A stretch of DNA of 34,987 nt from Oscillospiraceae bacterium (GCA_020866945.1 JAJBVW010000084.1:1-34987), one strand, 5' to 3'; shown: positions 17,306 through 32,569, counted from the stretch's first letter. The notes: generated from the letters alone by a model not told the origin. Translations and numbers: made by a program.

Positions 17306-18661
17306 ATGCCGTCCGGAGAGAGAGGGTATTTTTTGTTTACGAAAGCGCAGATAAAGGCCCTGCTCATTCCTTTGGTGATAGAGCAGGTGCTGACAGGGCT
17401 GATGGGCGTCGCGGATACGCTGATGGTCTCCAATGTGGGCGAGGCCGCCATATCCGGCGTGTCCCTGGTAGATGCCATCAACACCCTTGTCGTCTATTTC
17501 TTCTCCGCACTTGGCGCCGGCGGCACCATTGTCTGCGCCCAATATATTGGCCATGAGGAGCTGAACAAGGCAAACCTAGCCTCCCGACAGGTGCTGATTG
17601 CGGCGCTGGGTCTGGCGCTGTTTCTCAGCGTGACCCTGGCGAGCCTGCGCGGGCCAATTCTGCGGCTGATTTTCGGCTCCGTAGAGGCGGACGTTTTGGC
17701 GGCAGCCGATGTATATTTTCTGGTGACTGCCTTGAGCTATCCCTTTTTGGGTCTGTATTCCGTCAGCGCGGCGCTGCACCGGGCCACCGGCAACTCCAAG
17801 CGGCCTATGATTGTGGCAGCCGTGGCGGACGGAGTCAATATCGTCGGCAATGCCATTTTGATTTTTGCCTGCGGGCTGGGTGTGCTCGGCGCGGCGCTGT
17901 CCGCACTGTTCAGCCGCATTTTGTGCTCTGTGGTAATGCTGTATTTCCAAAGCCGCCCCGGGCAGGTCATTACACTGGGCCGGCTTCGGGATTTTCGGCT
18001 GGATGGCGCCATGATGAAGCGCATCATTCGCATCGGTTTGCCCACCGCCGTGGAAAACAGTATGTTCCAATTCGGCAAGCTGGTGGTACAAAGCACCGTG
18101 GCCAGCCTTGGGACAACCGCCATCGCAGCCCAGGCCATCGTCTCTACGCTGGAAAACTTTGGTTCCATGCCGGCCATGGCCATTGGCACCGGCCTTCTCA
18201 CGGTGGTGGGGCAATGCCTTGGGCGGGGCCAGACGGAAGAGGCCAAGCGATATATGACCTACTTCACCAAAATATCCACCGGAGTCATCCTGCTGACCAG
18301 CGTGCTGCTGTCCGTTTCAGTGCCGGTCGTCGTTCGGTTCACTGCGCTCAGCGCCGAAGGCGCGCGGCTTGCCTGCCAGCTGATATGGTTCAGCTCCGTT
18401 TTGAAGGTATTCACCTGGCCCTGCGCCTTCACACTTCCCAACGGTCTTCGAGCCTCCGGGGATGTATCCTATACCATGTGGGTCAGCGGCATCAGTATGT
18501 GGGTATTCCGCGTGGCGTTGAGCTGGTTTTTGTGCCGCGCTACCTCCATCGGCCTCTGGGGCGTGTGGATAGGCTGGTGCGTAGACTGGCTGTTCCGAGA
18601 AATCTGCTTTGTCGCGCGCTATCGCAGCGACAAATGGCTGGGGAAAAAGGTGCTTGAATAG
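17306..18661 (+). CDS. MATE-family efflux transporter
   Basis: About 12 predicted TM segments. MatE signature near the N-terminus (ALLIPLVIEQVLTGLMGVADTLMVS). Alternative TTG start at 17333 with a better RBS (GGAGAGAGAGGG). Confidence 0.85.
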   Translation: MPSGERGYFLFTKAQIKALLIPLVIEQVLTGLMGVADTLMVSNVGEAAISGVSLVDAINTLVVYFFSALGAGGTIVCAQYIGHEELNKANLASRQVLIAALGLALFLSVTLASLRGPILRLIFGSVEADVLAAADVYFLVTALSYPFLGLYSVSAALHRATGNSKRPMIVAAVADGVNIVGNAILIFACGLGVLGAALSALFSRILCSVVMLYFQSRPGQVITLGRLRDFRLDGAMMKRIIRIGLPTAVENSMFQFGKLVVQSTVASLGTTAIAAQAIVSTLENFGSMPAMAIGTGLLTVVGQCLGRGQTEEAKRYMTYFTKISTGVILLTSVLLSVSVPVVVRFTALSAEGARLACQLIWFSSVLKVFTWPCAFTLPNGLRASGDVSYTMWVSGISMWVFRVALSWFLCRATSIGLWGVWIGWCVDWLFREICFVARYRSDKWLGKKVLE

Positions 18662-18779: not shown

Positions 18780-19112
18780 TTATTCCTGAACCTCTGCGGT
18801 CTCAGGTTCGGCAGGGGATTCCTCGGCGGCAGCCTCAGGGGCGGAAGCCTCGGCGGGCGCGGCCTCATCAAAGACGACCAGGTCGTCCTCGACCTCCTTG
18901 CCGGCGTTTTCGTCGATGTGCAGCACATTCATGGCCTTTTTCTTCGCCTTCCGCCAGGCCACGCCGATGACCGCGCCGGCCACAACCACCACGCCTACAA
19001 CAGCCTGAATCGCAAAGGTCGTGACAGAGGGGTCAACATAGGAGGCGCACGCAGGCACCATCAGCAGCAGGGCAAAGCAGAGCGTGTAAAAGACAGTCCG
19101 AATCGTTTTCAA
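18780..19112 (-). CDS. Small membrane protein with an acidic C-terminal tail
   Basis: N-terminal hydrophobic signal/anchor (FYTLCFALLLMVPACAS), a second TM (FAIQAVVGVVVVAGAVIGVAW) followed by RKAKKK, then an E/A/P-rich tail. Confidence 0.6.
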   Translation of the reverse strand: MKTIRTVFYTLCFALLLMVPACASYVDPSVTTFAIQAVVGVVVVAGAVIGVAWRKAKKKAMNVLHIDENAGKEVEDDLVVFDEAAPAEASAPEAAAEESPAEPETAEVQE

Positions 19113-19227: not shown

Positions 19228-20007
19228 TCAGGTCACATAGGTTTTATCCAGCGCCTTCAGCTCATCCAGCGTATCTATCTCCTGGATGTCTGAAAAGGCA
19301 CAGGGGCGGACGCGGACAGTATAGTGGTCGTGAAAGATATTGAGTGGAACGGCCTCAAAAAACGCCTGACGATTTTCCTCCCGCTGGAAGGCAGCGGGGA
19401 GATCCTCCCCCAGGCGGCGGCCGTCCTCTTCTGACCAGTAGGAGACGCCGAACATATGACAGCAGTCATCCCCGCCCTTTTGGACGCACTGGATAACCCC
19501 GTCCTTTACGGGAAAGCACCAATCGTCCGTGTGAGCCACCGGTACGCCCAGGAAGTTTGAGCTATATTGATATTTGCAGATAAGGCCGGGATTTTGCAGC
19601 AACAGGTCAGCCTCGAACACATAAGCGTTTTGCAGGTACTCCGACGCCTGGAGAATGGAGGAGATGTTATTTGTCTCGTCATAGAGTGGGTTTTCAATGA
19701 ACTGTATCATGGGATACTCTTCCAGCAGCGAATTAAACGCCTCCCCCATATAGCCACGGACGAGATATATCTCCTCTATCCCGGCAGCCAGCACCGCATC
19801 CAGCAGCGACGCTATGATGGGACGTCCGAACACCGGAATCAGGGGCTTGGGAGTCGTCAGCGTCAGCGGCGCGAGACGGCTGCCGAAGCCCGCCGCCATA
19901 AACACAGCCCGCCTGGCGCGGTATGGCTCCAGTGCGGCCAGCTCCGCCGCCGTGGCGATCCCCTGCCGCTCTTTTTCTGCCAGGGCATTAAACTCCTGTT
20001 CCGTCAT
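19228..20007 (-). CDS. licC: LicC-type cytidylyltransferase (phosphocholine or phospho-aminoalcohol)
   Basis: AVFMAAGFGSRLAPLTLTTPKPL (G-x-G-x-R-L nucleotide loop), ETNNISSILQA and a C-terminal IQEIDTLDELKALD, all parallel to S. pneumoniae LicC motifs. The start overlaps the licA stop by 4 nt. Confidence 0.75.
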   Translation of the reverse strand: MTEQEFNALAEKERQGIATAAELAALEPYRARRAVFMAAGFGSRLAPLTLTTPKPLIPVFGRPIIASLLDAVLAAGIEEIYLVRGYMGEAFNSLLEEYPMIQFIENPLYDETNNISSILQASEYLQNAYVFEADLLLQNPGLICKYQYSSNFLGVPVAHTDDWCFPVKDGVIQCVQKGGDDCCHMFGVSYWSEEDGRRLGEDLPAAFQREENRQAFFEAVPLNIFHDHYTVRVRPCAFSDIQEIDTLDELKALDKTYVT

Positions 20008-20912
20008 ACCGTTCCCTCCTGGAAAAGCCGCTCAAGGCTCTCCCTTGCGTATCGGACGCCAAGCTGGGCGTAATCCTGATAAAAAATCCTGTCCTGCGGC
20101 TCCATCTTTGTTTTGAATACCGACCAGGTGCCCCACATGATAGCGGCACTGGCGCACATGGCAAACAGCTTTCTGCGCTCTGCCGATGTGGACGGCCTCT
20201 CTAAATACAGCTCCAGCAAATGAACGCACGCCTCCGCCGGTAAATCTCCATCGTGGCAAAAATCCCCTAAATCCTCCATGGGGTCGCTGATGCTCGCGTA
20301 TTCCCAGTCAATCAGCACAGGCTCCCGTCCATGCGGAAACAGAAAGTTATGGGGCAGACAGTCTCCATGGACAAGCTGGAACTGACTGCCGTCACCATAA
20401 TAGGCCGGGCATACAGACAGCACCCGCTCCCGCACGGGCCAATACTCAGCGGGGTAAAACGACTCTCCCTCCACGTCCTTCACACACTGGATGTAATATT
20501 CCATCCTGTCCAGGGCAGTGTTCTGCCGTTCACCCTTTATTTTCAAGCCATGAAAGCGTCGCAGCAGGGCCATCCCCCGGCGCAGCTCCCCCTCGTCGGC
20601 GGTATTTATCACATGACTTTCTGGGTAATATACCGTCACACGAATGCCGGTGTCCGGCTCAAAGTAGCACACCTCGTCGGTAATATGCTCGTCCTTCAGC
20701 CGAGCATACAGTGCACACTCCGCGCGGCGGTCACAGAACATCTCCGTTCCCCGCCCGGGCAGGCGAAGCATATAGTCCCCCACCGTGGTGCGGAACACAT
20801 AGGTATCGTTTGTGATGCCCCGCCCCGGGTTATTGTACGCCTCCAAAACCTGCTCCTGACGCAGATTCATAGCCCGAAGGAATATTTCCGTTGTCCTCTC
20901 ATCCACTGACAT
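20004..20912 (-). CDS. licA: Choline/ethanolamine-kinase family protein (LicA-like)
   Basis: Brenner motif LVHGDCLPHNFL and choline-kinase motif LIDWEYASISDPMEDLGDF. Confidence 0.75.
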   Translation of the reverse strand: MSVDERTTEIFLRAMNLRQEQVLEAYNNPGRGITNDTYVFRTTVGDYMLRLPGRGTEMFCDRRAECALYARLKDEHITDEVCYFEPDTGIRVTVYYPESHVINTADEGELRRGMALLRRFHGLKIKGERQNTALDRMEYYIQCVKDVEGESFYPAEYWPVRERVLSVCPAYYGDGSQFQLVHGDCLPHNFLFPHGREPVLIDWEYASISDPMEDLGDFCHDGDLPAEACVHLLELYLERPSTSAERRKLFAMCASAAIMWGTWSVFKTKMEPQDRIFYQDYAQLGVRYARESLERLFQEGTV

Positions 20913-20930: not shown

Positions 20931-22508
20931 TCATATAAACGCCCGGCGGAAAAGCCGGTTGTGGATGCTGCGGCGAAGAAGTCCCAGCACACCTGGCGTT
21001 TTGCCGTCATATTTTTTCCCGGCAAGATACAGCGCCTGAATCTGAATAGTCCGAATATCAGGTGCGGTCAGTGGGTCATCGCTCAAAACCACAAAGTCCG
21101 CAATCTTTCCTTCCGTCAAGCTGCCCCGTTCATGCTCGTCAAAGCTCATATACGCCGGGTTGTAGGTTATCATTCGCAGCGCATCCAGCCGTTCCATCCT
21201 CGCCTCTGCGTCGGGGTGAGAAACAGCGTTCGCCATGGCTGCCAGAGGATTCGGCATGGTGCATGGGCCGTCCGACCCGTCCCCCATTACCACGCCCCGG
21301 CGCTGGAGCTGTCCCAAGGGATTTAAGGCCCCGGCCCGCTCCGGGCCGAGTATCCTGTCCAAATATTCCTGAGGCTCCTGCTTCCAGAAGATAAAGGGCG
21401 ACTGCACCGCCACGCACAGCTTCAGTCTTGCGATACGGTCAAGCTGCTCAGGTGTGGCCATGCAGCAATGTATCAGCACATGACGGGCATCCTCCCTCGG
21501 ATAATCCGCCATCGCGGCCTCATAGGCTGTGACTGCCTGCTCCACCGCACGGTCTCCAATGGCGTGCATGGCAATCTGCAGACCCATGCGATTCGCCCGA
21601 ATGACAAAGTCGTTTATCTCCTCCTGGCTATAATACAGAACACCGACATTATTGGGGTCATTCGCATAGGGGCTTGTTAGGGCCGCATCCTCCGAACCAA
21701 AGCAGCCATCCAGCGCGAGCTTGAAGCAGCCGCCCACACGGGGGAACTTCCGCTTTTTCACAGCCTCCAAATCCATGGTCTGAAAAAATATGCGGTACGC
21801 CTGGGGCAGACCGGGGGCAAGAATATTTATCATGTCCACATCCAAATCGCCGGTGTAGCCCACACCCTCAACATTATGGACAAGGCCAATCCCCACGTCC
21901 GCCAGCGCCTTCGCCCCTTTGGAAAGGCCCCGCACCACGTCCAGGATAGGTATTTTTGCCGTTACCTCGTTCACGCCCTTATAAAAGGCGTTCTGATACA
22001 GCCAGCCGCTCTCTCCGTCATAGCCGGGGTCGTTTTTCACCTCGTCCGTCAGCAGGGACAGCATGGCGCTGTTGCAAACGGCGGCATGGCCGTCATATTT
22101 CACCACCATAAGAGGCCGGTCTGTCCAGCTGTCCATATCGGCCCGCTCCGGCAGACGCCCCTCCCGAACCGTATGGGCGGAGCAGCCATAGCCCATCAGC
22201 ACCTTGGCCCTGGGATGGGCATCCGCGTAAGCCCGCACGATGGCCGCATCCTCGTCAAAGCTCTCTGCATCCATGAGATAGAAAGTCTGCTGGAAGGTGG
22301 CAAAGGACTCAAAATGGATATGCGTGTCCGCGAAGGCTGGCGTCACCGCCGCCCCCTGAAGGTCAACGACCCTGGCCCTCTGACAGGATGCCGGCAGATT
22401 TTCCGGGCTGCCGACCCATACAATGCGGCCCTTATCCACCGCCATGGCGGAAAAAAATCTGTTTTCCGGCTCGCAGGAAATAAACCTGGCGTTTTTATAT
22501 ACAACCAT
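20931..22508 (-). CDS. Amidohydrolase-family metal-dependent hydrolase (Amidohydro_3 / YtcJ-like)
   Basis: 525 aa. HxH metal motif in FADTHIHF. Later HAIGD and VLIHC histidines and the DG-S-DGP region are typical of the family. Confidence 0.75.
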   Translation of the reverse strand: MVVYKNARFISCEPENRFFSAMAVDKGRIVWVGSPENLPASCQRARVVDLQGAAVTPAFADTHIHFESFATFQQTFYLMDAESFDEDAAIVRAYADAHPRAKVLMGYGCSAHTVREGRLPERADMDSWTDRPLMVVKYDGHAAVCNSAMLSLLTDEVKNDPGYDGESGWLYQNAFYKGVNEVTAKIPILDVVRGLSKGAKALADVGIGLVHNVEGVGYTGDLDVDMINILAPGLPQAYRIFFQTMDLEAVKKRKFPRVGGCFKLALDGCFGSEDAALTSPYANDPNNVGVLYYSQEEINDFVIRANRMGLQIAMHAIGDRAVEQAVTAYEAAMADYPREDARHVLIHCCMATPEQLDRIARLKLCVAVQSPFIFWKQEPQEYLDRILGPERAGALNPLGQLQRRGVVMGDGSDGPCTMPNPLAAMANAVSHPDAEARMERLDALRMITYNPAYMSFDEHERGSLTEGKIADFVVLSDDPLTAPDIRTIQIQALYLAGKKYDGKTPGVLGLLRRSIHNRLFRRAFI

Positions 22509-22548: not shown

Positions 22549-24354
22549 TTACAGTTTTATTTTTTCCAGCGCCTGATACAGCGCCTCATTGTCCGCCTCA
22601 TCCCGGACAGCCACGCGGATGAAATCCGCTCCGCCGAAGCCGTTTTTGGTGGACAGGTCTTTGATAAGCAGATTATCGTCCCGCAGAAGACGGTTTGCAA
22701 GCTCCTTGGAGCCAATGCCCTCCACGCGGCACATAATATAGTTTGCCTGGGACGGATAGGGCGTCAGGAAGGCGTATGCTCCCAGCCGCTCCTCCATTTT
22801 TTCCCGCTGGCGGACGATTTTGTTGCAGGCAGTTCTGTACTCCCCGCTGTAAAGGCCTACAATCTGGAAGAAATATTCTCCAAAGGAGTTGATATTCCAG
22901 ATGGGCAACAGTCCGCGGAGCTGCTCCATCCAGGCCGTATTGCCACTGGCGGCCACGCCCAGACGCAGCCCCGGCACTCCGTAGGATTTGCTGATGCTCT
23001 TAATGACCATCAGGTTCGGATAGGCATCCAAAATATCGTTATCCAGCAGCGTAAAGCGCAGCGGCGCCTCTGCAAAGTCCACAAAGGACTCGTCCACCAC
23101 AAAGGTCGTGCCATGCTCCCGGCAGATGTCGGCCAGCTCCAAAATTTCCTCGCGCTTCAAAAAGCTGCCGCTGGGGTTATCGGGATTGATGATGACAAGA
23201 TTATCCATCTCCGCCGCTGCTTTGCGAAGGGCGGACATATCAAACTGGAAGCCATAGTCTCTGGCCTGGATGGGAACGATCTCGCAGTCCGGGAAGCAGC
23301 GGACATATTCGTTGAAAGCAGGAATAGAAAGGCCCGTCCGGCCCCGCATGGTGCGGCCCAGGGTGTTGATAAGCTCCGCCGCCCCGTTCCCGACCAGGAC
23401 AAGTTCGTCCCGTATGCCGAACATCTTGCCCGCCATCAGCTTTTGCACATACATCCCGGACGGGTAGCTAGTGAGAAGCTGGGAATAGGAATACTGCATC
23501 TGCTCCAGCATTTTCTTCGGAGGAAAATAGGGATTCACCAGATAGCAGAAGTCCTTCAGCCCGTCAAACCGCCAATAGCCGCCGAAGTGCAGTTCGTAAG
23601 CGTGGAGCCTGTCCTCATCTCTGGCAAAAATGGTATTGGCAATGTCCAAATCCTGCACATCGTCTATCTCGTACCATTTCAAATCGCCCATCTTAAAGGC
23701 CCGCAGGCCGGCAAACGGCAGATGGGCCAGGGCTTTCAGCACCATTTCATAATACTGGTTGGCCCCATATGCCTGGAGATAGGACATCATGAACGGCACA
23801 TACTGCCGGGTGGAAAACTCCCGGCTGAATTTATACACGTTCACGGTTTTATAGTAGGTGTCCGCGCTGGCGAAACTGAAATCCTTTTTCTCGATAAACT
23901 CCCGGATAAGGCCGTCTTCGTCCACCAGGGTAACGGTGCCGTCCATCCACTGCTCGTACTTCGCCACGGCCACCATGTTCGGCTCCGGGGCCTCCACCAG
24001 ACGGCGTATCAGGCTGGGGTCATAAATCAGGTCAGATTCCAGCAGGACGGTATCATCCGCCATCAGCTCCTCCCGCGCCAGATACAGAGAATAAATATTA
24101 TTCGTGGTGGCATAGTCCGGGTTTTCCACAAAGACAAGGTCAAAGTCGCTGAGCTTTTCCCGGGCAAAGGCTTTTAGCTTTTCCCCCTCATAACCCACCA
24201 CAATGACAAAACGCCGGATGCCCGCCTGGCGCAGGGCCTCCGCCGCGTGCTCCAGGAGAGTATAGCCCCCCACCTTCACCATGCACTTGGTCTGGTTGTT
24301 CGTATAGGCCCCCAGGCGCTTTCCCATCCCGGCAGCCAGCATCAATGCCTGCAT
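22549..24354 (-). CDS. Fusion protein: N-terminal LicC-type cytidylyltransferase plus C-terminal class I/II PLP enzyme (HisC/CobD-like aminotransferase or decarboxylase)
   Basis: The first ~250 aa carry MLAAGMGKRL, TNNIYSLYLAREEL and WYEIDDVQDLDIA, close parallels to LicC. The C-terminal ~350 aa carry NPDNPSG, DESFVDF and the PLP-lysine motif SISKSYGVPGLRLG. Confidence 0.8.
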   Translation of the reverse strand: MQALMLAAGMGKRLGAYTNNQTKCMVKVGGYTLLEHAAEALRQAGIRRFVIVVGYEGEKLKAFAREKLSDFDLVFVENPDYATTNNIYSLYLAREELMADDTVLLESDLIYDPSLIRRLVEAPEPNMVAVAKYEQWMDGTVTLVDEDGLIREFIEKKDFSFASADTYYKTVNVYKFSREFSTRQYVPFMMSYLQAYGANQYYEMVLKALAHLPFAGLRAFKMGDLKWYEIDDVQDLDIANTIFARDEDRLHAYELHFGGYWRFDGLKDFCYLVNPYFPPKKMLEQMQYSYSQLLTSYPSGMYVQKLMAGKMFGIRDELVLVGNGAAELINTLGRTMRGRTGLSIPAFNEYVRCFPDCEIVPIQARDYGFQFDMSALRKAAAEMDNLVIINPDNPSGSFLKREEILELADICREHGTTFVVDESFVDFAEAPLRFTLLDNDILDAYPNLMVIKSISKSYGVPGLRLGVAASGNTAWMEQLRGLLPIWNINSFGEYFFQIVGLYSGEYRTACNKIVRQREKMEERLGAYAFLTPYPSQANYIMCRVEGIGSKELANRLLRDDNLLIKDLSTKNGFGGADFIRVAVRDEADNEALYQALEKIKL

Positions 24355-24365
24355 AGCAAATCCTC

Positions 24366-25163
24366 TCAGTCCTCTCGAATCAACCGGGCGTACAGGCCCA
24401 AAAAGTCGTAGCCCATCTTGTGATGCAGGGACAGGGTGTTCTCGTTATCAGCGCCTAAATAGGCAAGCCCCCGCTTTCCCTCCGTCAGCACCAGATTCCA
24501 GGTGCTTGCAGTAATGGCCCGGCCCAGGCCGTGTCCGCGCATTTCCGTGTCCGTCACAAGACCGCTGATAACGGCAAGCTCCTCCGTCTCCGCGCTGGTG
24601 GCGTTGGTGGCTACCAGCCGTCCCCCCGGCTCCCGCATGACGAATAGACGGCCAAAGCCGCTGTCAATGCGATTTTCCAACTGCTCGCACAGGCTCTCAT
24701 AGGTGTACACGGAGTTGTAGATAGGCTCCTTCATCATCAGCCGGGCAATCTCCGGCACGTCCGCCTTGCCCGCCTGCTGGACGGACAGATCGGATTTCCC
24801 GTCCATCAGCTTGTCCGTGGTGATAATGTGGCTCAGCTCATAGGCGTATGTATCCTTCGTCTTTCCCTTCAATGGGTCGATGCTCCGCTGCTCCCCTGTA
24901 ACGCACTTGGGGTGCAGCTGCTCAATCATGGCCAGCGCCTCCCGCTGGGGAAACACGTCCCGGCTGTAAAGGTGCAGGGTGTCAAAATAGCGGTACATGA
25001 CTCCGTCTATCCGATCGCCCTCCCCGCACATCCAAAGGCCCACATCCGGCCCCTGGGCGCCGTATTCCTTCATGTCCATATACAGGTAAAAGCACTTGTA
25101 CTTATCCTCGCCAATGTAGTCTATCACCTGTGGGATATATGAGTTATCACATTGAATCATCAT
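24366..25163 (-). CDS. GNAT-family N-acetyltransferase
   Basis: Acetyl-CoA motif A region VISGLVTDTEMRGHGLGRAI. Start set at MMIQCDN, 4 nt after the upstream stop. The tracked ORF would overlap the upstream gene by 155 nt. Confidence 0.65.
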   Translation of the reverse strand: MMIQCDNSYIPQVIDYIGEDKYKCFYLYMDMKEYGAQGPDVGLWMCGEGDRIDGVMYRYFDTLHLYSRDVFPQREALAMIEQLHPKCVTGEQRSIDPLKGKTKDTYAYELSHIITTDKLMDGKSDLSVQQAGKADVPEIARLMMKEPIYNSVYTYESLCEQLENRIDSGFGRLFVMREPGGRLVATNATSAETEELAVISGLVTDTEMRGHGLGRAITASTWNLVLTEGKRGLAYLGADNENTLSLHHKMGYDFLGLYARLIRED

Positions 25164-25167
25164 CGCT

Positions 25168-27069
25168 TTATTTCCCGTTTTGTCCGTCCTTTGCCTTTTT
25201 TTGATTTTCCACCATGCGGCCGATGAGATAATCTGCCGCATATTTTCCGCTCTCGCCGAAGTGATATAGCTTCTCCCGCCGGACAGCCTCCAGCGTTTCC
25301 GCGTAGGCAGCCCGGTTTTCAATCATATCCAGCGCCGCAGCCGCCGCCTTTTCCCGCACTTCATCCAGCTCCAGCGCCGCGCCCATCACTGCCCGGAGCT
25401 TCGCGTCCGGGGCACAGCGGGCAATGTCCTCGTCCATCCAGGCCTCATTGACCCGCTTCATGGGAGTATTAATGTAAAGCACCGGCTTTTTGGTCGCCAG
25501 AGCGTATTCACAGCCAATGTTTGACCAGTCGGTCACCAGAATATCCGAGGAGAACACTGTCTCGTTGGAGCTGAAATTGAGCTGGAAACGGAAGCGTTCC
25601 TTGTCGTACCCCTCACAGTCGTGAATGAGCTTTTCAAGCCGCTGGGGGAAGCGGCGGATATACTGCGGATGGGGCCGGACGGTCACGTCAAAGCCCGCCG
25701 CCAGCAGCGGCTCCGCCAAATCCGCAAGGCAGCTGTCCAGGATATTATCCGCCTGCCAGGAGGGGGCGATAAGCACCGTTTTCACAGGATTTTCATGCTT
25801 TTCCATACGGTCATATTCCGCCGCCATGTTATCAATGACGCCATAGCCGCAGGGTATCATTTTCTGGTTCGGCAGGCCCATTTTTTCGTTCCAGCCGCGC
25901 ATCTCCACCTCGAAGCCAGGAGTGGGCGTCAGCAGGGTATCAAAATGGTCAAGCGCTCCCTTCCGCAGCGTCACCAGGCCGGAGAATATGCCGTGGAACA
26001 TATAAACGTATTCCACGTCCTTGCGCACATAGCTGCGCTTAAAGTGGTAGGTGTCCAGATCCGGCATGGTCATTACCACGATGTCCGCGTCCATCTTCAT
26101 AAACAGGGTAATCATCCGCCGCTCGCCAATATAATAGGGCTGAATGCGCGGTTCCTTTTCCGCAAGGGCGAAGATCTGGTCGTCCGGGTCGCTGGTGACG
26201 TAGTTTATCACCACGTTTGTCTGGGCCAGCAGCTCCTCGATGGTATTCTGAAAATACTTATAAAATCCGCTGGCCTCGGAATAGAACACCAGCCGCTTGT
26301 TGGCCACATGGAAAAAGTGCTTGTAATCTGCTTTTTCCCGCTTTTTCAGCTCCTTGGTCTGTGTCTGGCCGAACTGATCCAGCGCCTCCAGCTCCTTCCG
26401 GCTGGCCTCCAGCGCCTCATAGTCCACATACTTTTTCGGCGGCATGATGGCGTTGCAGGCAAGCTGCACCAGGATGGAAAAGAGATTGCTGTATATCCAG
26501 TACAGCGCCACGCCGGTGGAAACAAACACACCCAGCACCAGCGAAATGCCCACAGACACCCCATTTGAGGAGAGCTGCTCGGCTTTACTCTGCTCCCGCT
26601 GAAGGGGATTGATGTAGTTTTGCGCGAAGCTCAGCACCACTGCCGCAAGTCCAGCGCCTAATGGCATGAGCCACGTCCAGCCCCCATCCGTCATCGGGAT
26701 AAGGCCCAGGGCCGGGGCCGCGCCGGTGTCCGTTACCGAATGGATGACGCCAATCATCCCCAAAAGGATGATGATTTGAATAATCAGCGGGATAGTGCTC
26801 AGCAGGGGCCGGTAATGCTTTTCCTTATACAAAGCCGCCTGCTCGTCGCCTATCTTCTCCCGGTCGCCGTAATACTGCACCTTGATGCGGTTCAGCTCCG
26901 GCATCAGGGCCACCATTTTCAGCCCGTTGCGGTTCGTCCACAGGGAAACGGGCATGAGAATGATTTTAGTGAGCAGTGTAAACAGGGCGATAGCCACCAC
27001 GTAATTCGGCACGATGGCATAGCACAGATCCATCACATAGCCGAATATTTTTGCCAGAAAGTCTATCAT
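25168..27069 (-). CDS. Fusion protein: N-terminal YidC/Oxa1-type membrane insertase domain plus C-terminal CDP-glycerol glycerophosphotransferase (TagB/TagF, Glyphos_transf) domain
   Basis: The first ~215 aa match the YidC core: AIALFTLLTKIILMPVSLW, LMPELNRIKVQYYGDREKIGDEQAALYKEKHYRPL, LIIQIIILLG and ALYWIYSNLFSILVQ. The C-terminal ~380 aa match TagF: VLIAPSWQ, VRPHPQ and ILVTDWSNIGCEYALATKKPVLYI. Confidence 0.8.
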   Translation of the reverse strand: MIDFLAKIFGYVMDLCYAIVPNYVVAIALFTLLTKIILMPVSLWTNRNGLKMVALMPELNRIKVQYYGDREKIGDEQAALYKEKHYRPLLSTIPLIIQIIILLGMIGVIHSVTDTGAAPALGLIPMTDGGWTWLMPLGAGLAAVVLSFAQNYINPLQREQSKAEQLSSNGVSVGISLVLGVFVSTGVALYWIYSNLFSILVQLACNAIMPPKKYVDYEALEASRKELEALDQFGQTQTKELKKREKADYKHFFHVANKRLVFYSEASGFYKYFQNTIEELLAQTNVVINYVTSDPDDQIFALAEKEPRIQPYYIGERRMITLFMKMDADIVVMTMPDLDTYHFKRSYVRKDVEYVYMFHGIFSGLVTLRKGALDHFDTLLTPTPGFEVEMRGWNEKMGLPNQKMIPCGYGVIDNMAAEYDRMEKHENPVKTVLIAPSWQADNILDSCLADLAEPLLAAGFDVTVRPHPQYIRRFPQRLEKLIHDCEGYDKERFRFQLNFSSNETVFSSDILVTDWSNIGCEYALATKKPVLYINTPMKRVNEAWMDEDIARCAPDAKLRAVMGAALELDEVREKAAAAALDMIENRAAYAETLEAVRREKLYHFGESGKYAADYLIGRMVENQKKAKDGQNGK

Positions 27070-27096: not shown

Positions 27097-28866
27097 TCAA
27101 TAGAAGGAGTCGTACAGCGGCTCGATAGCGTCGGCCACGCCGTACAGGTACCAGTAGCGTTCTTCCTCATAAATGGTGTCCCGGTCGCCGATATAGTTGA
27201 ACACGCCGAACACGTTATAGCGGTAGGAGCCGTTGGCCTGGGCGTCCCACTGGTTCAGGTTGCCAACCCAGTCCACATCGGGATAGGACTTCATATAGCC
27301 CCAAACGCGGGTCGTCCGCTCCCGGACGTCTCCCTCCTCCCAGTCAAAGACTGTGGTGCCGTAGTCGCTGTAATCCTCACCCAGGGCATAAAGGATAGTG
27401 GGCATAATGTCTTCCTGGGCCACGGGAGCGCTTGTGACCTGCATTTCCTCAAACTCCTGGCCGGGCATCTTGATAAGAAATGCCGCCTGGAAGCACTCAA
27501 AATAGCCATGGTCGGCGGAGATGATGATGGTGGCATCATCATAGATGCCCTGCTCCTTCATCTGCTCCAAGAACTCGCCGACAGCCAGCAGATAACCGTG
27601 GAGCTGGCTCATGCGGTCGGTTTCATCCTCGTCGCACAAATAGCCATCATAATCCACTACATAGGGGAAATGCGCGCCCTGAAGGTGATACCAGCTGAAT
27701 ATCTTGGTGTCATCCGTCAGACTGATGCGCTCCTCCTGAAGCTCGGTATAGAAGTCATAGTTAATGTGCAGCTTTTCCACGCCCTGATATTCCGCCACGT
27801 CCACGATGCCGCCGGTGGAGACATAGAAGTCATTTTTCAGCATGGTGGGCAGATAGCGGTACAGGGACATATACACCACATTTTCCAGCAGCTCCCCCGT
27901 CACCACAAGGTCGCCGGCCACAGCGATATTGTCCACCTTGCCCAGCATATTCTCCGTGTCAATCGCGGCGTAGTTGGACTCAAGATAGAGATTTACCGTA
28001 TAGCCATTGTCGTGGAGCGTGTCATAGAAGTTATTTGCCAGGTCGCTGTGCCAGGCGTTATACACCGTCTCCACAGTGGGAATAGTTGTGTCAAAATACT
28101 CATGGGTCAGCAGATAGCACAGGGACGGGAAGGTGAAAGAGTAGCAGGAGGACATATTATCGTAGTAGATAAAGTCCTGGAAAAACTCCGCCAGCGTGGG
28201 ATCCTCCTCCAGCGCCTCCTCAAAAATCAGGGGGGAGAACTGGTCAAGGGTAATAACGATGATGTTCTCATCCGAGGATAGCACAAACTCATCATCCCCC
28301 GCGAGCTGATAGTTGATGGCGTCCGGATCCTCCGCCTGCCAGGTAGTCACCAGACTGACAGCCTGGGCCAGCACCAGCGCGGCACAGAGAATATAACCCG
28401 CCGTGCGGTATGCGCCATGCAAAAACCATCCGGCTATCACAATGACCACCAGGGCCACAGCCCACACGGCAATGTTTATATACGCGGCTTGGGCATCATC
28501 ATGCCAATCGAAGCCAGAGCCATCCAGTACCGCCAGCTCGCCGTTCAGCAGAACGCCCTGGAGATAGAACAGCACAGCAACGCCCAGCAGAAGGGCATAA
28601 ACAATGCGCTGGGCCTTACCGGGAACAAAGGCCAGCACAGCGGACAGAAGCGCCGTCGCTCCGACCGTTACCCCAGCCAAAGACCAGAACAACGTTCCCG
28701 CCGAAAAAGTCAGATATGCCTGGTTTGAGTTTACAATGTCCAGCGGGCCAAAGAACAACCCGGTAAAGCACAGCAAAAAGGCCGGTGCCAGCAGCCCCAG
28801 AAATCGGTGGAGCCAATTTTTCCAGTAGTCTTTGCCAGACACAGCCTTCGTCTTATGTTCTTCCAT
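27097..28866 (-). CDS. LtaS/sulfatase-superfamily membrane ectoenzyme (phospho-alcohol transferase-like)
   Basis: Five N-terminal TM segments, then an alkaline-phosphatase-fold domain with IIVITLDQFSP (metal/nucleophile region) and IIISADHGY. Start set at MEEHKTK (28866), with AGGAGG upstream. Confidence 0.75.
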   Translation of the reverse strand: MEEHKTKAVSGKDYWKNWLHRFLGLLAPAFLLCFTGLFFGPLDIVNSNQAYLTFSAGTLFWSLAGVTVGATALLSAVLAFVPGKAQRIVYALLLGVAVLFYLQGVLLNGELAVLDGSGFDWHDDAQAAYINIAVWAVALVVIVIAGWFLHGAYRTAGYILCAALVLAQAVSLVTTWQAEDPDAINYQLAGDDEFVLSSDENIIVITLDQFSPLIFEEALEEDPTLAEFFQDFIYYDNMSSCYSFTFPSLCYLLTHEYFDTTIPTVETVYNAWHSDLANNFYDTLHDNGYTVNLYLESNYAAIDTENMLGKVDNIAVAGDLVVTGELLENVVYMSLYRYLPTMLKNDFYVSTGGIVDVAEYQGVEKLHINYDFYTELQEERISLTDDTKIFSWYHLQGAHFPYVVDYDGYLCDEDETDRMSQLHGYLLAVGEFLEQMKEQGIYDDATIIISADHGYFECFQAAFLIKMPGQEFEEMQVTSAPVAQEDIMPTILYALGEDYSDYGTTVFDWEEGDVRERTTRVWGYMKSYPDVDWVGNLNQWDAQANGSYRYNVFGVFNYIGDRDTIYEEERYWYLYGVADAIEPLYDSFY

Positions 28867-29064
28867 GGTTATAAGGGTTCCTCCTAAGATACGGGATTTG
28901 GGGGGTGAAAGTCTTAAGCGTCTTTCACACACAAGCAAAGGTTTACGGACAGCCTGCATATTAACAATTATTTAATAAATAATAACACTTATTTTACAGG
29001 ATTACAACAGGAATCCGCAATCTGTTACAAAAAAAACTGTATATCTACCTTAACAAAGTGCCTA

Positions 29065-29093
29065 TTGACGAACGACGGGGAACAATTTATAAT
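29065..29093 (+). promoter_or_regulatory. Putative sigma-A promoter for the acyltransferase gene
   Basis: TTGACG (29065..29070), 17-nt spacer, TATAAT (29088..29093). Confidence 0.6.
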
Positions 29094-29133
29094 ATTTTAC
29101 AAAACATTCACAAAGACTCGAAGGAGCTGCCTT

Positions 29134-30189
29134 ATGGAAACTTTAGCTTCCCCTGCGCCCGCCGCCACCGCAAAAAAGCGCTGGTACCGGGCCGATAACA
29201 TCCGCTGGATTCTGCTGTTTAACGTCATTGCGGAGCATATGCTGACCCAGACGGATATTACTTACAACTGGCTAATCACCGTAATCGTCTGCTGGTCGCG
29301 CATGATCACCATGCCCGCATTCTGCTTTTTATCCGGGTATTTCTCCAAAAAAGGGGATAAATGCTATCAGAGCGCCATCTTTGACTTCCTCATCCCCTAT
29401 CTTATCTTCAACTCCATTTTTGCCCTGATATTCGGCTCCTCCGCAGCAGACATCTTCACGCCCACCTTTGTGTATTGGTATCTGCTGAGTATGTTCTGCT
29501 GGAAGCTGATGACCAAGGCGCTGCAGCAGATAAAATATATTCTACCTCTATCCATCGCTGTGGCTCTGTTGGTAGGCGGACTGAATGATATAGGCCATTT
29601 CCTGAGCCTGAGCCGCACCATCGGCTTCCTTCCCTTCTATATCGTCGGCATGAAGATGAGCCGCGAGGATGTTGCCAAGGTGGAAAAGCTCCCCAAAATT
29701 CCCGTTCTGCTTATCACTCTGGCCGTCATGGGTGTCTGGGGCTGGCTAAATGTAAAGGGCGTGTATCACATCGACTTCTATTATTACTGGGAGCCTTATG
29801 CCGGTGTGGCCGGCGATCCCCTGAGTATGTTCTCCTATAGCTTTTTGAAGGGCATCATCCTGCGTGCGCTTGGCTATGTCATCTCCGGGCTGCTGATTGT
29901 GTTCCTGTTCTGCTTCGTGCCGGACAGGTCTCTCCCCATCATCCGGGACGGCGGCACCCGCACCATGGTTCCCTATCTGCTGCATACCTATTTCATCATG
30001 AACATGGGGTATCTCTACAGCTTTGTCCCCGCTCTGGATCACTGGTATTTCACCATCCCCATCGCCGTGGTCATGGCTGTGTTCCTCCTCTGGCTCCTTG
30101 GCCTGCCCGCGCTGGATCAGCTGTATAAGGATTTGATGAGCTTCATCAAAAAGCTGCTTTACAAGGAGCCGGACATGCCAAAGGCATAG
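29134..30189 (+). CDS. Acyltransferase family 3 integral membrane O-acyltransferase
   Basis: About 10 TM segments. N-terminal R..DNIRWILLFNVIAEH signature of Acyl_transf_3. GAAGGAG RBS before the ATG at 29134. Confidence 0.75.
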   Translation: METLASPAPAATAKKRWYRADNIRWILLFNVIAEHMLTQTDITYNWLITVIVCWSRMITMPAFCFLSGYFSKKGDKCYQSAIFDFLIPYLIFNSIFALIFGSSAADIFTPTFVYWYLLSMFCWKLMTKALQQIKYILPLSIAVALLVGGLNDIGHFLSLSRTIGFLPFYIVGMKMSREDVAKVEKLPKIPVLLITLAVMGVWGWLNVKGVYHIDFYYYWEPYAGVAGDPLSMFSYSFLKGIILRALGYVISGLLIVFLFCFVPDRSLPIIRDGGTRTMVPYLLHTYFIMNMGYLYSFVPALDHWYFTIPIAVVMAVFLLWLLGLPALDQLYKDLMSFIKKLLYKEPDMPKA

Positions 30190-30325: not shown

Positions 30326-30401
30326 TGGTGGAGACGAAGGGATTCGAACCCTCGACCTCTCGGATGCGAACCGAACGCTCTCCCAGCTGAGCTACGCCCC
30401 C
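30326..30401 (-). tRNA. tRNA-Ala (anticodon CGC)
   Basis: The reverse complement is GGGGGCGTAGCTCAGCTGGGAGAGCGTTCGGTTCGCATCCGAGAGGTCGAGGGTTCGAATCCCTTCGTCTCCACCA, 76 nt. It folds as a cloverleaf with a G3:U70 Ala identity pair, anticodon loop TTCGCAT, a T-loop GGTTCGAATCC and an encoded CCA. Confidence 0.9.
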
Positions 30402-30480: not shown

Positions 30481-30760
30481 GCTCTGGAGCTGTACTAGTC
30501 GGGGAGCCAGCGGTGCCCTGTACCCGCAATCCGCTATAGCGGGGACGAACTCCTGCCCCCGGATATTCGATGTGTTGCCTGCCCGCAGCAAGTAGCGTTG
30601 ATGGCTCGGTCTTGCGCAACGGGAACCCGTGAACCATGTCAGGCGGGGAACCGAGCAGCATTAAGCGGGGCCTCCCGTGTGCCGTGAGGTCGCCGGGTCT
30701 GAGCCAACTACTGCGGTAACGGATGTGTCGAGTATACAAAGGCAGGTGTGCAGCTCTTTT
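30481..30760 (+). ncRNA. ffs: Signal recognition particle RNA, long Bacillus-type (scRNA with Alu domain)
   Basis: Long stretches parallel B. subtilis scRNA: GGGGAGCCAGCGGTGCCCTGTACCCGCAATCCGCTATAGCGGGG (Alu domain), GCGCAACGGGAACCCGTGAACCATGTCAGGCGGGGAACCGAGCAGCATTAAGCGG (domain IV) and GTGCCGTGAGG. The 5' GAGCTGTAC pairs with the 3' GTGTGCAGCTC. T-run at 30757..30760. Its position directly upstream of dnaX is the canonical Firmicute synteny. Ends are approximate. Confidence 0.9.
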
Positions 30761-30814: not shown

Positions 30815-32569
30815 ATGTATCAGGCGCTCTATCGAAAATGGCGCCCACGCACCTTTGACGATGTGGTGGGCCAGGATCATATCACGACCACCCTGAAGCG
30901 GCAGGTACAGACGGGCCGCCTGTCCCATGCATATCTCTTTATCGGGACGCGCGGCACCGGAAAGACCACCTGCGCCAAAATCTTGGCCAGGGCTGTGAAC
31001 TGCGAGCACCCCATAGACGGCAATCCCTGCAACCAGTGCGCAGCCTGCCGGGGTATCGAAGAGGGCAGCATTCTGGACGTGGTGGAGCTGGACGCCGCCT
31101 CCAACAACCGCGTGGATGACGTCCGCGCCCTGCAGGACGAGGCCATCTTCTCCCCCGCCAGTGTGAAAAAGCGGGTCTACATCATCGACGAGGTTCATAT
31201 GCTCTCCACGGCGGCCTTCAACGCCCTCCTGAAAATATTGGAGGAACCGCCCGAGCATTTGATGTTCATTCTCTGCACCACAGAGCTGCACAAGGTTCTG
31301 CCCACCATTGTCTCCCGCTGCCAGCGCCACAGCTTCAAGCGCATTGAGCCGGAGGCCATTGCGGGGCGGCTCGCCTACGTGGCGGAGCAGGAGGGGCTGA
31401 CGCTGGAGCCGGAGGCCGGCGCCTTATTGGCACGTCTTGCGGACGGTGGAATGCGGGACGCGCTGAGCCTGCTGGATCAGTGCGCTGCCACGGAGCATAT
31501 TGGTTCCCAGGAGGTTCTTTCCGCCATGGGGCTGGCCGGGAGCCAGCGGACGGCGGAGCTGCTGGATGCTGTATGCGCCGGTTCTTCCGAAAAGGCTCTG
31601 ACAACATTCAATGCACTCTGGAAGGACGGCAAAGACCCCGCCGGTATATTGGACGAACTGGCAGGGCTGATGCGGGACGTGCTGCTGCTTCAGGTAGCCC
31701 CAGAGAGCGGGGATGCCCTGCTCTCTGGCCTGTACGAAAAGAAAACACTGCAATATTTTGCCGCAAAGCTGCCCGGCGCGCGGCTGATGGACGGCATGAA
31801 TGAGATTCGAGCCGCTGACCTTTCCGGCGCAAATCCCCGGCGAACGGCGGAGCTGTGTCTTGTGCGCCTGTGCGTGCCGGAGACCGGGGCCACGCTGGCA
31901 GGACTGAAAACCCGCGTGGCCCGACTGGAGGCCGCCTGGAAGACGGGTATCGCCCCGTCTGCAAGCGCTCCCGTTTCTCCCTTGTCGGAGACGCCGGAGC
32001 CAATAAAGCCCCTCCAAGCGTCCGCACCGGAACCAAAACCAGCGCCCACAATGTCAGCGGAGGATGTCCCCTGGTATACAGACGATGACGCGCCCCCGGA
32101 GGAGCCAGACTTTATGCCTCCTGCGGAGCCAGAGCCGGAGCCGGAGCCAACGTCTGTTCGGGCCGTTGCTCCTTCCCCGCCCCCATCGGAACCGGAACCC
32201 GCGCCCGCGCCGCCTCAGACGGTGCCATCGGAACCGGGCGGCACATTTTGGGACACGCTAATACATTATTTAAACGGCAAGGTCGATATGGGTACTTATG
32301 CCATTCTCTCTCTTCCAACCCAGGTGTCTGGCTCGCTTGCGGGGGATGTGCTGACGGTTTACCTGCTCTCCCCCATTGCAAAAATGATGGTGAATACCCC
32401 CGCAATGTCCGCCGCCATTCAATCGGAGGCCAGCGCCATCGCGGGCAAGCCAGTGCGCGTGAGCTTTTCTGACCAGCCTCCGGCCCCCTCCCCGGTTGCT
32501 CCCTCGGTTCAGCCGGACACGAGCAAGCTGGACGCACTGAAAAAATTCCCCAACTTTCGGATTGAATAA
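30815..32569 (+). CDS. dnaX: DNA polymerase III subunits gamma/tau
   Basis: YRKWRPRTFDDVVGQ, Walker A GTRGTGKTT, Zn module CEHPIDGNPCNQCAACRGI, Walker B IIDEVHMLS, SRCQRHSF. A Pro/Glu/Ala-rich linker precedes the C-terminal domain. Confidence 0.95.
   Translation: MYQALYRKWRPRTFDDVVGQDHITTTLKRQVQTGRLSHAYLFIGTRGTGKTTCAKILARAVNCEHPIDGNPCNQCAACRGIEEGSILDVVELDAASNNRVDDVRALQDEAIFSPASVKKRVYIIDEVHMLSTAAFNALLKILEEPPEHLMFILCTTELHKVLPTIVSRCQRHSFKRIEPEAIAGRLAYVAEQEGLTLEPEAGALLARLADGGMRDALSLLDQCAATEHIGSQEVLSAMGLAGSQRTAELLDAVCAGSSEKALTTFNALWKDGKDPAGILDELAGLMRDVLLLQVAPESGDALLSGLYEKKTLQYFAAKLPGARLMDGMNEIRAADLSGANPRRTAELCLVRLCVPETGATLAGLKTRVARLEAAWKTGIAPSASAPVSPLSETPEPIKPLQASAPEPKPAPTMSAEDVPWYTDDDAPPEEPDFMPPAEPEPEPEPTSVRAVAPSPPPSEPEPAPAPPQTVPSEPGGTFWDTLIHYLNGKVDMGTYAILSLPTQVSGSLAGDVLTVYLLSPIAKMMVNTPAMSAAIQSEASAIAGKPVRVSFSDQPPAPSPVAPSVQPDTSKLDALKKFPNFRIE

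Follow-up and report, generated by a model that had tools for sequence, protein, structure and literature searches.

What does a YidC-type membrane protein insertase do when it shares one polypeptide with an enzyme of the teichoic acid polymerase family? The question is raised by a stretch of 34,987 nucleotides (nt) from an Oscillospiraceae bacterium (GCA_020866945.1, JAJBVW010000084.1:1-34987), the whole of which we refer to as the window. Its minus strand carries, at 25168..27069, a gene encoding 633 amino acids (aa) plus a stop codon, here called FUS, which an earlier reading of the DNA (the original prediction) had described as a YidC/Oxa1 insertase domain fused to a TagF-type CDP-glycerol phosphotransferase. 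Domain searches, structure prediction and a survey of related loci revealed that FUS keeps company, across two phyla, with an LtaS-like ectoenzyme, SULF, and a small hairpin membrane module, c2. The three very probably form one functional unit that installs head groups derived from cytidine diphosphate (CDP) or cytidine monophosphate (CMP) compounds. The best reading of how they do so, which we hold tentatively and at a little less than even confidence, is a relay of the MprF kind: the TagF-like domain would load a head group, the YidC groove would pass it outward, and SULF would transfer it to the surface.

The minus-strand translation of FUS is a single open reading frame (ORF), uninterrupted over its 633 aa, and scans against the Pfam and NCBIfam databases recognized both of its domains, each Pfam domain above its gathering cut-off. 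60KD_IMP matched aa 23-206 over profile positions 1-162 of 163 (E 1.5e-29, 103.5 bits, cut-off 35), and TIGR03592 (yidC_oxa1_cterm) reached 92.1 bits against a cut-off of 84.3. The N-terminal membrane region is thus YidC-like, and at the domain level FUS is a member of the YidC/Oxa1/Alb3 superfamily. This core spans aa 1-210 (26440..27069, minus strand) and consists of an N-terminal amphipathic helix, a first transmembrane (TM) helix bearing K35, the C1 hairpin and TM2-TM5. The family profile, searched against the sequences of the PDB, found E. coli YidC (E 2e-16) and B. halodurans YidC2 (E 1e-13). In these alignments K35, the positive charge of TM1 that the original prediction had spotted as a lysine, falls on R366 of E. 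coli and R72 of B. halodurans; Q98 falls on E. coli Q429, and Y190-W191..S194-N195..Q202 on E. coli Y516-Y517..S520-N521..Q528. The motifs that had led to the fusion being noticed are all present in the translation: TLLTKIILMP, LMPELNRIKVQYYGD and ALYWIYSNLFSILVQ for the YidC part, and VLIAPSWQ, RPHPQ and ILVTDWSN for the TagF part.

A helical linker, aa 211-254 (26308..26439, minus strand), leads to the enzyme; it contains two helices (217-231 and 239-254) in the AlphaFold2 (AF2) model and has 54% mean pairwise identity. The TagF-like GT-B phosphotransferase domain itself, aa 255-633 (25171..26307, minus strand), is divergent and predicted to be cytoplasmic. Its Glyphos_transf match (PF04464) is modest (aa 403-532, E 1.3e-6, 28.1 bits, cut-off 22.1) and covers only profile positions 159-291 of 367, in the C-terminal half of the profile, while relatives of FUS score 35-70 bits with wider coverage. 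The AF2 model, built with 42 homologues (mean predicted local distance difference test score 87.7, predicted template modelling score 0.71), shows an amphipathic N-terminal helix, five TM helices plus the C1 hairpin, the two linker helices and a two-Rossmann GT-B domain. Its YidC-core helices (residues 2-19, 23-65, 70-83, 88-115, 130-153, 162-180 and 185-208) come in the order expected of a five-helix YidC with a cytoplasmic coiled-coil C1 hairpin. When the model was searched against the PDB with Foldseek, the top match was the teichoic acid polymerase TagF (3l7l, E 2e-9), followed by 8a0c, 8a0m, 8qoy and 8va1 (TagF-like capsule polymerases; 8va1 is TarL), and E. coli YidC (6al2) matched over 209 columns with a root-mean-square deviation of 3.7 Å.

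A sequence search of the PDB with the TagF part returned only a 13-bit TarL fragment, and the family profile matched no TagF-family sequence there. The domain is too divergent for such matches, so the link to TagF is carried by the fold search and Pfam, and on that evidence it belongs to the TagF-like family, as a divergent member. The TDWS region of FUS aligns with the SDYSS region of TarL. Two histidines, H359 and H467, are invariant, one in each half of the domain, and are putative equivalents of the catalytic and pyrophosphate-binding H444 and H584 of TagF. Together these results confirmed the architecture first proposed, in which a cytoplasmic TagF-type domain follows a YidC core. With TagF, TarL, TarF, TagB and the TagF-like capsule polymerases, FUS shares the GT-B fold, the Glyphos_transf match, the TD(W/Y)S motif and, putatively, the two-histidine pattern; it differs in being covalently embedded in the membrane through its YidC core, whereas members of the TagF family are peripheral.

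A fusion of this kind might in principle be an artefact, in which a frameshift or misassembly joined a housekeeping yidC to an adjacent tagF-like gene, and we see next to no chance of this. More than 110 full-length homologue clusters of about 625-645 aa, 54-99% identical and with both domains present, come from independent assemblies, which speaks against an unrecognized stop or frameshift splitting the gene, and the linker is conserved across the family. A scan of species-representative genomes (one per GTDB species, with both search patterns placed within the TagF part) confirmed at least 570 stretches (at least 569-570 candidate loci). The best 80 of these, from 80 species genomes, match FUS over nearly its whole length, beginning at about residue 1-6 and ending at residue 620-633, except where a contig edge cuts a few of them short. 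Carriers among the best 80 loci include the Bacillota families Oscillospiraceae, Lachnospiraceae, Christensenellaceae and Acutalibacteraceae, as well as Anaerotruncus, and, in the Coriobacteriia (Actinomycetota), Eggerthellaceae, Atopobiaceae and Coriobacteriaceae. The fusion is present in cultured organisms too: Eggerthella sinensis DSM 16107, Raoultibacter massiliensis, Gordonibacter sp. and Anaerotruncus sp. G3 carry it, as do Tractidigestivibacter species. With full-length homologues in independent assemblies and in isolates, and with a conserved linker, we rejected the artefact. Two metagenome-assembled genomes (MAGs) with Gram-negative labels, L017 (Bacteroidaceae) and P0338 (Fibrobacter), also contained fusion genes; these labels are probably binning errors or contamination.

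In NCBI and JGI, members of the family bear only the names "membrane protein insertase YidC" or "YidC/Oxa1 family membrane protein insertase". Even pieces that contain only the TagF part (P0281 and P0310) are named as insertase, and the enzyme domain is invisible in annotation. Full-text literature searches found no paper on a YidC-TagF architecture, and the main paper on nucleotide-activated phosphonates mentions none of YidC, TagF or sulfatase. The component pieces are of known kinds; their combination, and the pathway it implies, are new.

Might FUS simply be the housekeeping YidC of its genome, with an enzyme attached? This candidate is unlikely. None of the NF00xxxx YidC equivalog models of NCBIfam reached its cut-off on FUS (22-73 bits against cut-offs of 276-1094), and the gene stands in an envelope-decoration operon, not in rnpA-yidC-jag. 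Some genomes carry fusion paralogues, and in one locus a canonical YidC stands beside the fusion. This is an unfused protein of 335 aa with an arginine in TM1, whose gene lies in a Christensenellaceae MAG at a distance of 1.3 kb from the fusion (L034:7666-8673, minus strand); it scores 143 bits with TIGR03592 against 92 for FUS, and at least this genome has both proteins. Compared with E. coli YidC, B. halodurans YidC2 and B. subtilis SpoIIIJ/MisCA and YqjG/MisCB, FUS keeps the five-helix core, the C1 hairpin, the positive charge of the first helix, Q98 in the place of Q429, the YW..SN...Q motif of the last helix, and an N-out/C-in topology that is backed by both orders of fusion to the ectoenzyme (see below). 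In contrast to these insertases it has lysine for arginine, a 380-aa enzyme in place of a short basic C-terminal tail, an invariant QxEQ in its C2 loop, and polar TM residues that are fixed at many positions; it lacks the canonical G-C/LP motif before Q98 and forms a divergent branch. Its occurrence is sporadic and often multi-copy, whereas the housekeeping YidC is a universal single gene.

Two fusion paralogues per genome were seen in L004 (10001-11890 and 21325-end), in L028 (6781-8667 and 9983-11878) and in L037 plus L061, which belong to one MAG. Such paralogues each lie beside different donor-synthesis genes, which suggests one machine per head group. The architecture also varies in other ways. 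P0122 (943 aa) and P0128 (833 aa) place an N-terminal signal anchor and a predicted extracellular domain of about 200-300 aa before the YidC core; this domain has no Pfam match and recalls the P1 domain of Gram-negative YidC. In L060:9995-12076 an insertion of about 70 aa splits the YidC core, in L079:9944-12064 one of about 50 aa lies in the TagF domain, and in P0130 (458 aa) the YidC part is cut to its first helix.

The YidC part is no less constrained than the enzyme. Across 86 fusion proteins from two phyla, mean pairwise identity is 56% in the YidC part, 61% in the N-terminal half of the TagF part and 50% in its C-terminal half, and to judge from this alignment selection acts as strongly on the former as on the latter two. 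Position 35 is lysine in 84 sequences and arginine in 1. N48, G68, P94, Q98, Q157, E159, Q160, S172, Y190, W191, N195 and N206 of the YidC part are conserved in all 86, and so are H359, S437, R465, H467, D514 and S516 of the TagF part. The motif Q157-x-E159-Q160, in the cytoplasmic C2 loop, is specific to the family. So many invariant polar residues in or near the membrane are unusual, and with the QxEQ motif they argue that the YidC part is not a decaying anchor.

The most informative clues to function are two partners that the original prediction had overlooked, SULF and c2. SULF is encoded directly upstream of FUS (27097..28959, minus strand) and comprises five hydropathy peaks, corresponding to five predicted TM helices, followed by an LtaS-like ectodomain of the alkaline-phosphatase superfamily (Pfam Sulfatase, 33 bits, cut-off 25). 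Its true start is probably Met32 at 28866, which gives 589 aa, since homologues are 585-597 aa long and a promoter-like site lies just upstream. This site (28979..29007, minus strand) consists of TTGTAA, a 17-nt spacer, TATTAT and an extended TG; it is a consensus match and a possible operon promoter. The SULF family profile found the S. aureus LtaS ectodomain as its top match in the PDB (E 3e-14). D239, H430 and D483-H484 are invariant, the last pair being a metal-ligand motif, and in an alignment to a sulfatase-family structure T276 occupies the nucleophile position; for LtaS, the published residues are E255, T300, D475 and H476. LtaS and GacH draw their head group from a membrane lipid. SULF follows the LtaS/GacH pattern and has no Cys/Ser-formylglycine pattern of the true sulfatases, and it therefore looks like a transferase, not a sulfatase. 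With LtaS, LtaP, GacH and EptA it shares a polytopic N-terminal TM domain, an extracellular domain of the alkaline-phosphatase superfamily, the position of the threonine nucleophile and the Asp/His ligands; its sequence likeness to LtaS is low (20-23 bits in NCBIfam against a cut-off of 970). Whereas those enzymes draw on bulk phospholipids and work without a partner of their own in the cytoplasm, SULF is tied genetically, and sometimes covalently, to a cytoplasmic CDP-dependent transferase.

How tight this tie is was seen in a survey of neighbourhoods, in which the ORFs of 86 loci were weighted by cross-locus homology and clustered; ORF calls are approximate, and 69 fusion genes could be assessed. 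SULF adjoins the fusion gene on the same strand in 48 of the 69 (21 upstream, as in the window, and 27 downstream, as in Coriobacteriia) and is fused to it in 3, so that it is adjacent or fused in 51; in 10 more it lies within 8 kb without being adjacent. To follow the fusions further, we searched 1.84 billion cluster representatives with the TagF part, which gave 1,634 matches, 320 of them at E <= 1e-30, and classed the best 150 with local hidden Markov models (HMMs). Among these best 150, 39 were YidC-TagF, 8 SULF-YidC-TagF, 8 YidC-TagF-(c2)-SULF, 3 c2-TagF and 92 TagF only, a class that includes fragments of fusions (e.g., P0136, P0149, P0172 and P0174). Pfam confirmed the triple fusion of 60KD_IMP, Glyphos_transf and Sulfatase in L039, L044, P0125, P0126, P0153 and P0132, in both orders. 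The triple fusions are proteins of 1,170-1,545 aa and include L026:9950-14155, L039:10004-14167, L044:9896-14104 (a 1,390-aa ORF of Raoultibacter massiliensis), P0125, P0126, P0127, P0132, P0135, P0153 and others. The two orders are coherent together only if the YidC core is N-out/C-in, and this places the TagF domain in the cytoplasm and the catalytic domain of SULF outside. One further fusion extends the picture to head-group activation: P0142 (905 aa) carries a C-terminal choline/ethanolamine kinase domain (Pfam) after YidC-TagF, which ties the FUS family to Lic-type activation.

The same data bear on a reading in which nothing passes between the two enzymes: FUS would decorate a precursor inside the cell, and SULF would be a lipoteichoic acid-type synthase or a trimming phosphodiesterase that happens to be encoded in the same operon. 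The 8 fusion genes without SULF within 10 kb would be natural under such independence, as would the LicD and Wzx-like genes of some loci, but strict adjacency of FUS and SULF over two phyla would not, and gene fusions of the two arose independently in both domain orders, in 16 of 58 cluster representatives that contain YidC. We regard independent activities as highly improbable.

The second partner, c2, is encoded by the last gene of the operon (18780..19112, minus strand) and was recognized by locus clustering and HMM search. In the window a hydrophobic segment is followed by A-S-Y-V-D-P-S-V-T-T-F-A-I-Q, a TM helix, RKAKKK and IDENAGKEVEDD. The consensus has the same plan: after the hydrophobic segment comes the near-invariant A-Y-(I/V)-D-P-S-V-x-T-Y-x-I-Q-A, then a TM helix with a basic stretch behind it, and last an acidic tail, IDENxxKEVEEDIV. 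The module matched nothing in Pfam or NCBIfam; similar Y-I-(D/G)-P-G motifs may open many membrane proteins of the alkaline-phosphatase family. The module was found in 69 of the 86 loci (e.g., L020:11950-12230 and aa 729-793 of the L044 ORF) and, of the 69 assessable fusion genes, 67 have it at a distance of 8 kb or less and 50 at no more than 500 nt. In Bacillota a separate gene encodes it (80-120 aa), in Coriobacteriia it forms the N-terminus of SULF, and in triple fusions it sits between TagF and SULF; rarely, it is fused straight to a TagF-like domain. These c2-TagF forms might seem to test whether the YidC core is dispensable, and in that use they were uninformative: they come down to two clusters, both rare, which branch within the fusion clade and sit on contigs 2-4 kb long, and for these reasons they are probably secondary.

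Such constancy of c2 invites the view that the YidC core moves nothing at all and acts as a scaffold, holding TagF at the inner leaflet and, with c2 parked in its groove, linking it to SULF, while the product crosses the membrane by some other route. An invariant aspartate in the short outer loop of c2 and the invariant groove residue Lys35 fit the charge pairing between YidC and its substrates that Kumazaki reportedly described in 2014, and both the near-universal presence of c2 beside the fusion genes and its position in the fused proteins are what a docking element would show. Relatives in the TagF clade can also do with a plain TM anchor (P0133), no anchor (P0183) or the YidC remnant of P0130, and the rare c2-TagF proteins are without any YidC, a point blunted by their probably secondary origin. 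A mere anchor, however, needs neither a complete five-helix core nor some 15 fixed polar positions and a fixed C2-loop motif held over two phyla, and the minimal locus described below encodes no other translocator. On this evidence we judge a scaffold without transport unlikely, though it deserves serious consideration.

Alternatively, the YidC core could be a private insertase or chaperone for c2 and the polytopic SULF, with TagF working separately on cytoplasmic lipid-linked precursors. The canonical signature is indeed kept (K35 for R366, Q98 for Q429, YW..SN for Y516-N521), the C1 hairpin is complete, the partner genes next door encode membrane proteins, and c2 resembles M13 procoat, a YidC-only substrate. 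The idea, voiced in the original prediction, that synthesis is coupled to the insertion of a partner protein has thereby gained a concrete candidate, c2, with the shape of a classic YidC substrate. Insertion, though, happens once per molecule, which makes a one-to-one covalent fusion to an enzyme hard to explain and a fusion in cis to the supposed client harder still. The 380-aa C-terminal domain would moreover sit where the ribosome docks on canonical YidC (as judged from 4utq and 5m5h), and the canonical YidC 1.3 kb from the fusion in L034, like the genomes with two or more fusion paralogues, does not favour a private insertase. We therefore consider this role improbable.

If something other than protein passes through the core, what is it? 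The genes between FUS and c2, all on the minus strand, give a hint. The GNAT acetyltransferase (FR47-like; Pfam FR47 and Acetyltransf_1; 24366..25163), 265 aa when counted from Met54 of the listed ORF, has its start codon 4 nt past the FUS stop and is, as cluster c5, a conserved downstream neighbour in 12 of 84 non-redundant related loci. Next comes one ORF (22549..24354) that joins, according to Pfam, a MobA-like nucleotidyltransferase (NTP_transf_3) to a CobD-like decarboxylase of phospho-amino acids that depends on pyridoxal phosphate; it scores 180 bits with TIGR01140 (L-threonine-O-3-phosphate decarboxylase), below the 290-bit cut-off, and from its domains this bifunctional protein probably makes the activated head group. 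It is followed by an Amidohydro_3 metallohydrolase (20931..22508; Pfam E 9e-63; cluster c13, present in 7 related loci), a LicA-like kinase of the APH/choline-kinase family (20004..20912; Pfam APH and Choline_kinase) and a LicC-like nucleotidyltransferase (19228..20007; Pfam NTP_transferase and NTP_transf_3; cluster c1, in 37 of 84 non-redundant related loci). The bifunctional enzyme and the kinase together suggest a CDP-activated amino-alcohol phosphate, e.g., aminopropanol phosphate or ethanolamine phosphate.

Donor cassettes vary from locus to locus around the common theme of small head groups activated with CDP or CMP. Lachnospiraceae and other loci encode phosphonate chemistry: a fusion of phosphoenolpyruvate mutase with a cytidylyltransferase, a phosphonopyruvate decarboxylase, and an Fe-alcohol dehydrogenase or an aminotransferase. 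Coriobacteriia loci carry an EamA (LicB-like) permease, nucleotidyltransferases and LicD. The smallest arrangement, L087/L088, consists of licC-like, licA-like, FUS and c2-SULF genes set among housekeeping genes, and no LicD, Wzx, ABC exporter or other translocator was found in its neighbourhood. We accordingly had to part with two elements of the original prediction. A CDP-glycerol donor finds no support, as the window has no TagD-type gene for a glycerol-3-phosphate cytidylyltransferase and the linked genes point to amino-alcohol phosphate, choline-type and phosphonate head groups; nor does the gene context support a polymerase or primase role, and a CDP-glycerol teichoic acid polymerase was rejected as a candidate. 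The linked donor genes set FUS apart from the TagF family as well, with its CDP-glycerol or CDP-ribitol donors, and nothing in the FUS loci indicates polymerase activity.

These pieces fit together in the relay that we tentatively favour. Cytoplasmic enzymes encoded nearby would make a small head group activated with CDP or CMP: in the window probably an amino-alcohol phosphate, through the kinase, the CobD-like decarboxylase and the cytidylyltransferases, and in other loci a choline-type phosphate or a 2-aminoethyl- or 2-hydroxyethyl-phosphonate. The TagF-like domain would move this phospho- or phosphono-head group to a hydroxyl of a lipid or glycolipid acceptor embedded in the inner leaflet. 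The YidC groove, hydrophilic, positively charged and open to both cytoplasm and bilayer, would let the head group cross to the outer leaflet, where SULF, tethered through c2, would take it over through a Thr-phospho intermediate and hand it to a teichoic acid, a polysaccharide or another surface acceptor. In favour of this relay are the two folds with intact sites, the selection on the groove, the fusions to SULF, the donor genes and the minimal locus without another translocator. There is precedent for two of its elements. For E. coli YidC, scrambling of glycerophospholipids has been demonstrated in vitro with proteoliposomes, and for B. subtilis MisCB it has been seen in simulations (PMC11047089). 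MprF, for its part, joins a synthase to the domain that translocates the lipid which the synthase makes (PMC8131360).

Several observations weigh against the relay. Scrambling by YidC has been demonstrated for ordinary glycerophospholipids only, and the characterized enzymes of the TagF family act on lipid-linked glycans or growing polymers. The relatives of the TagF part without a YidC core (P0133, P0183 and, with its TM1-only remnant, P0130) are awkward, and many further representatives of about 380 aa match the TagF profile only, some of them being fragments of fusions. The hairpin of c2, with its short acidic outer loop, fits docking or insertion at least as well as it fits the passage of lipid. 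The fusion genes that lack SULF in their surroundings belong here too, and several Coriobacteriia loci encode LicD, a GtrA-sized protein or a Wzx-sized protein, which points to a conventional cytoplasmic route beside the fusion. The conduit idea of the original prediction has thus gained support that is real but indirect, from the ectoenzyme fusions in both orders, the minimal locus and the invariant groove. Its supporting remark, that the operon has no recognizable flippase, holds. The one transporter gene nearby encodes a MATE-family protein (17306-18661, plus strand), runs convergently to the end of the operon and is probably unrelated, since it is not conserved beside the fusion in other loci.

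The remaining features of this part of the window lie beyond SULF. A divergently transcribed membrane acyltransferase (Acyl_transf_3 in Pfam; 29065..30189, plus strand) belongs to cluster c7 and occupies the same position in 11 loci of the Oscillospiraceae type. Just past the operon come ordinary housekeeping features: a tRNA-Ala(CGC) (30326-30401, minus strand), the large bacterial signal recognition particle RNA (30490-30753, plus strand; Rfam RF01854, 210 bits) and dnaX (30815-32569, plus strand). An Rfam scan detected no riboswitch or other RNA within the operon itself.

How does such a relay compare with known routes for decorating the cell surface? Systems such as GtrA/GtrB/GtrC, CsbB/GtcA/YfhO and ArnC/ArnEF/ArnT activate their cargo in the cytoplasm, load it on a membrane carrier, flip it and transfer it outside. 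These three-component systems handle sugars on undecaprenyl phosphate with a GT2 enzyme, a small flippase and a GT-C enzyme, whereas the FUS system would handle phospho- or phosphono-cargo with other protein families. The LicD pathway is similar in having a LicA-like kinase and a LicC-like cytidylyltransferase, which are neighbours of FUS as well, and one relative of FUS is itself fused to a choline kinase; LicD differs in its unrelated fold, its wholly cytoplasmic course and its lipid-linked precursors, and neither the window nor the minimal locus L087 encodes it. The closest parallel in logic is MprF, in which a cytoplasmic head-group domain is covalently joined to a lipid-carrying TM domain (PMC8131360, PMC2774229), and translocation by FUS would follow the same principle. 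MprF nevertheless has unrelated folds, takes its group from aminoacyl-tRNA and not from a CDP or CMP donor, and has no ectoenzyme partner.

For the bacteria that carry it, the relay could fill a gap in surface decoration with phosphonate and phosphocholine. Hosts recognize gut commensals in part by such phosphocholine and phosphonate epitopes. The step that follows CMP-2-aminoethylphosphonate (CMP-AEP) or CDP-choline is undefined in many Gram-positive gut bacteria, and PMC6697681 names for it only LicD-like enzymes or glycosyltransferases. In at least hundreds of genomes the label "insertase YidC" hides the enzyme domain, and it may mislead counts of yidC paralogues. FUS belongs to a gene set that is widespread among Gram-positive bacteria of the gut and whose probable task is to bring small head groups containing phosphate from inside the cell to an enzyme at the outer face of the membrane. 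That the YidC/Oxa1 fold has turned from a protein insertase into a dedicated translocator of head-group lipids, fused to the enzyme that makes the lipid and coupled through c2 to an LtaS-like ectoenzyme, so as to give gut Bacillota and Coriobacteriia a self-contained route for phosphocholine-type, amino-alcohol-phosphate and phosphonate decoration, is a proposal that we regard as doubtful in this full form, yet well within the possible. YidC/Oxa1 proteins are known as protein insertases, and lipid scrambling by them has been reported only recently and only in vitro. If the proposal is true, FUS would provide a physiological setting and a genetic handle for the passage of head groups or lipids through the insertase groove, and translocation through that groove, if shown, would be a categorically new function for the YidC fold.

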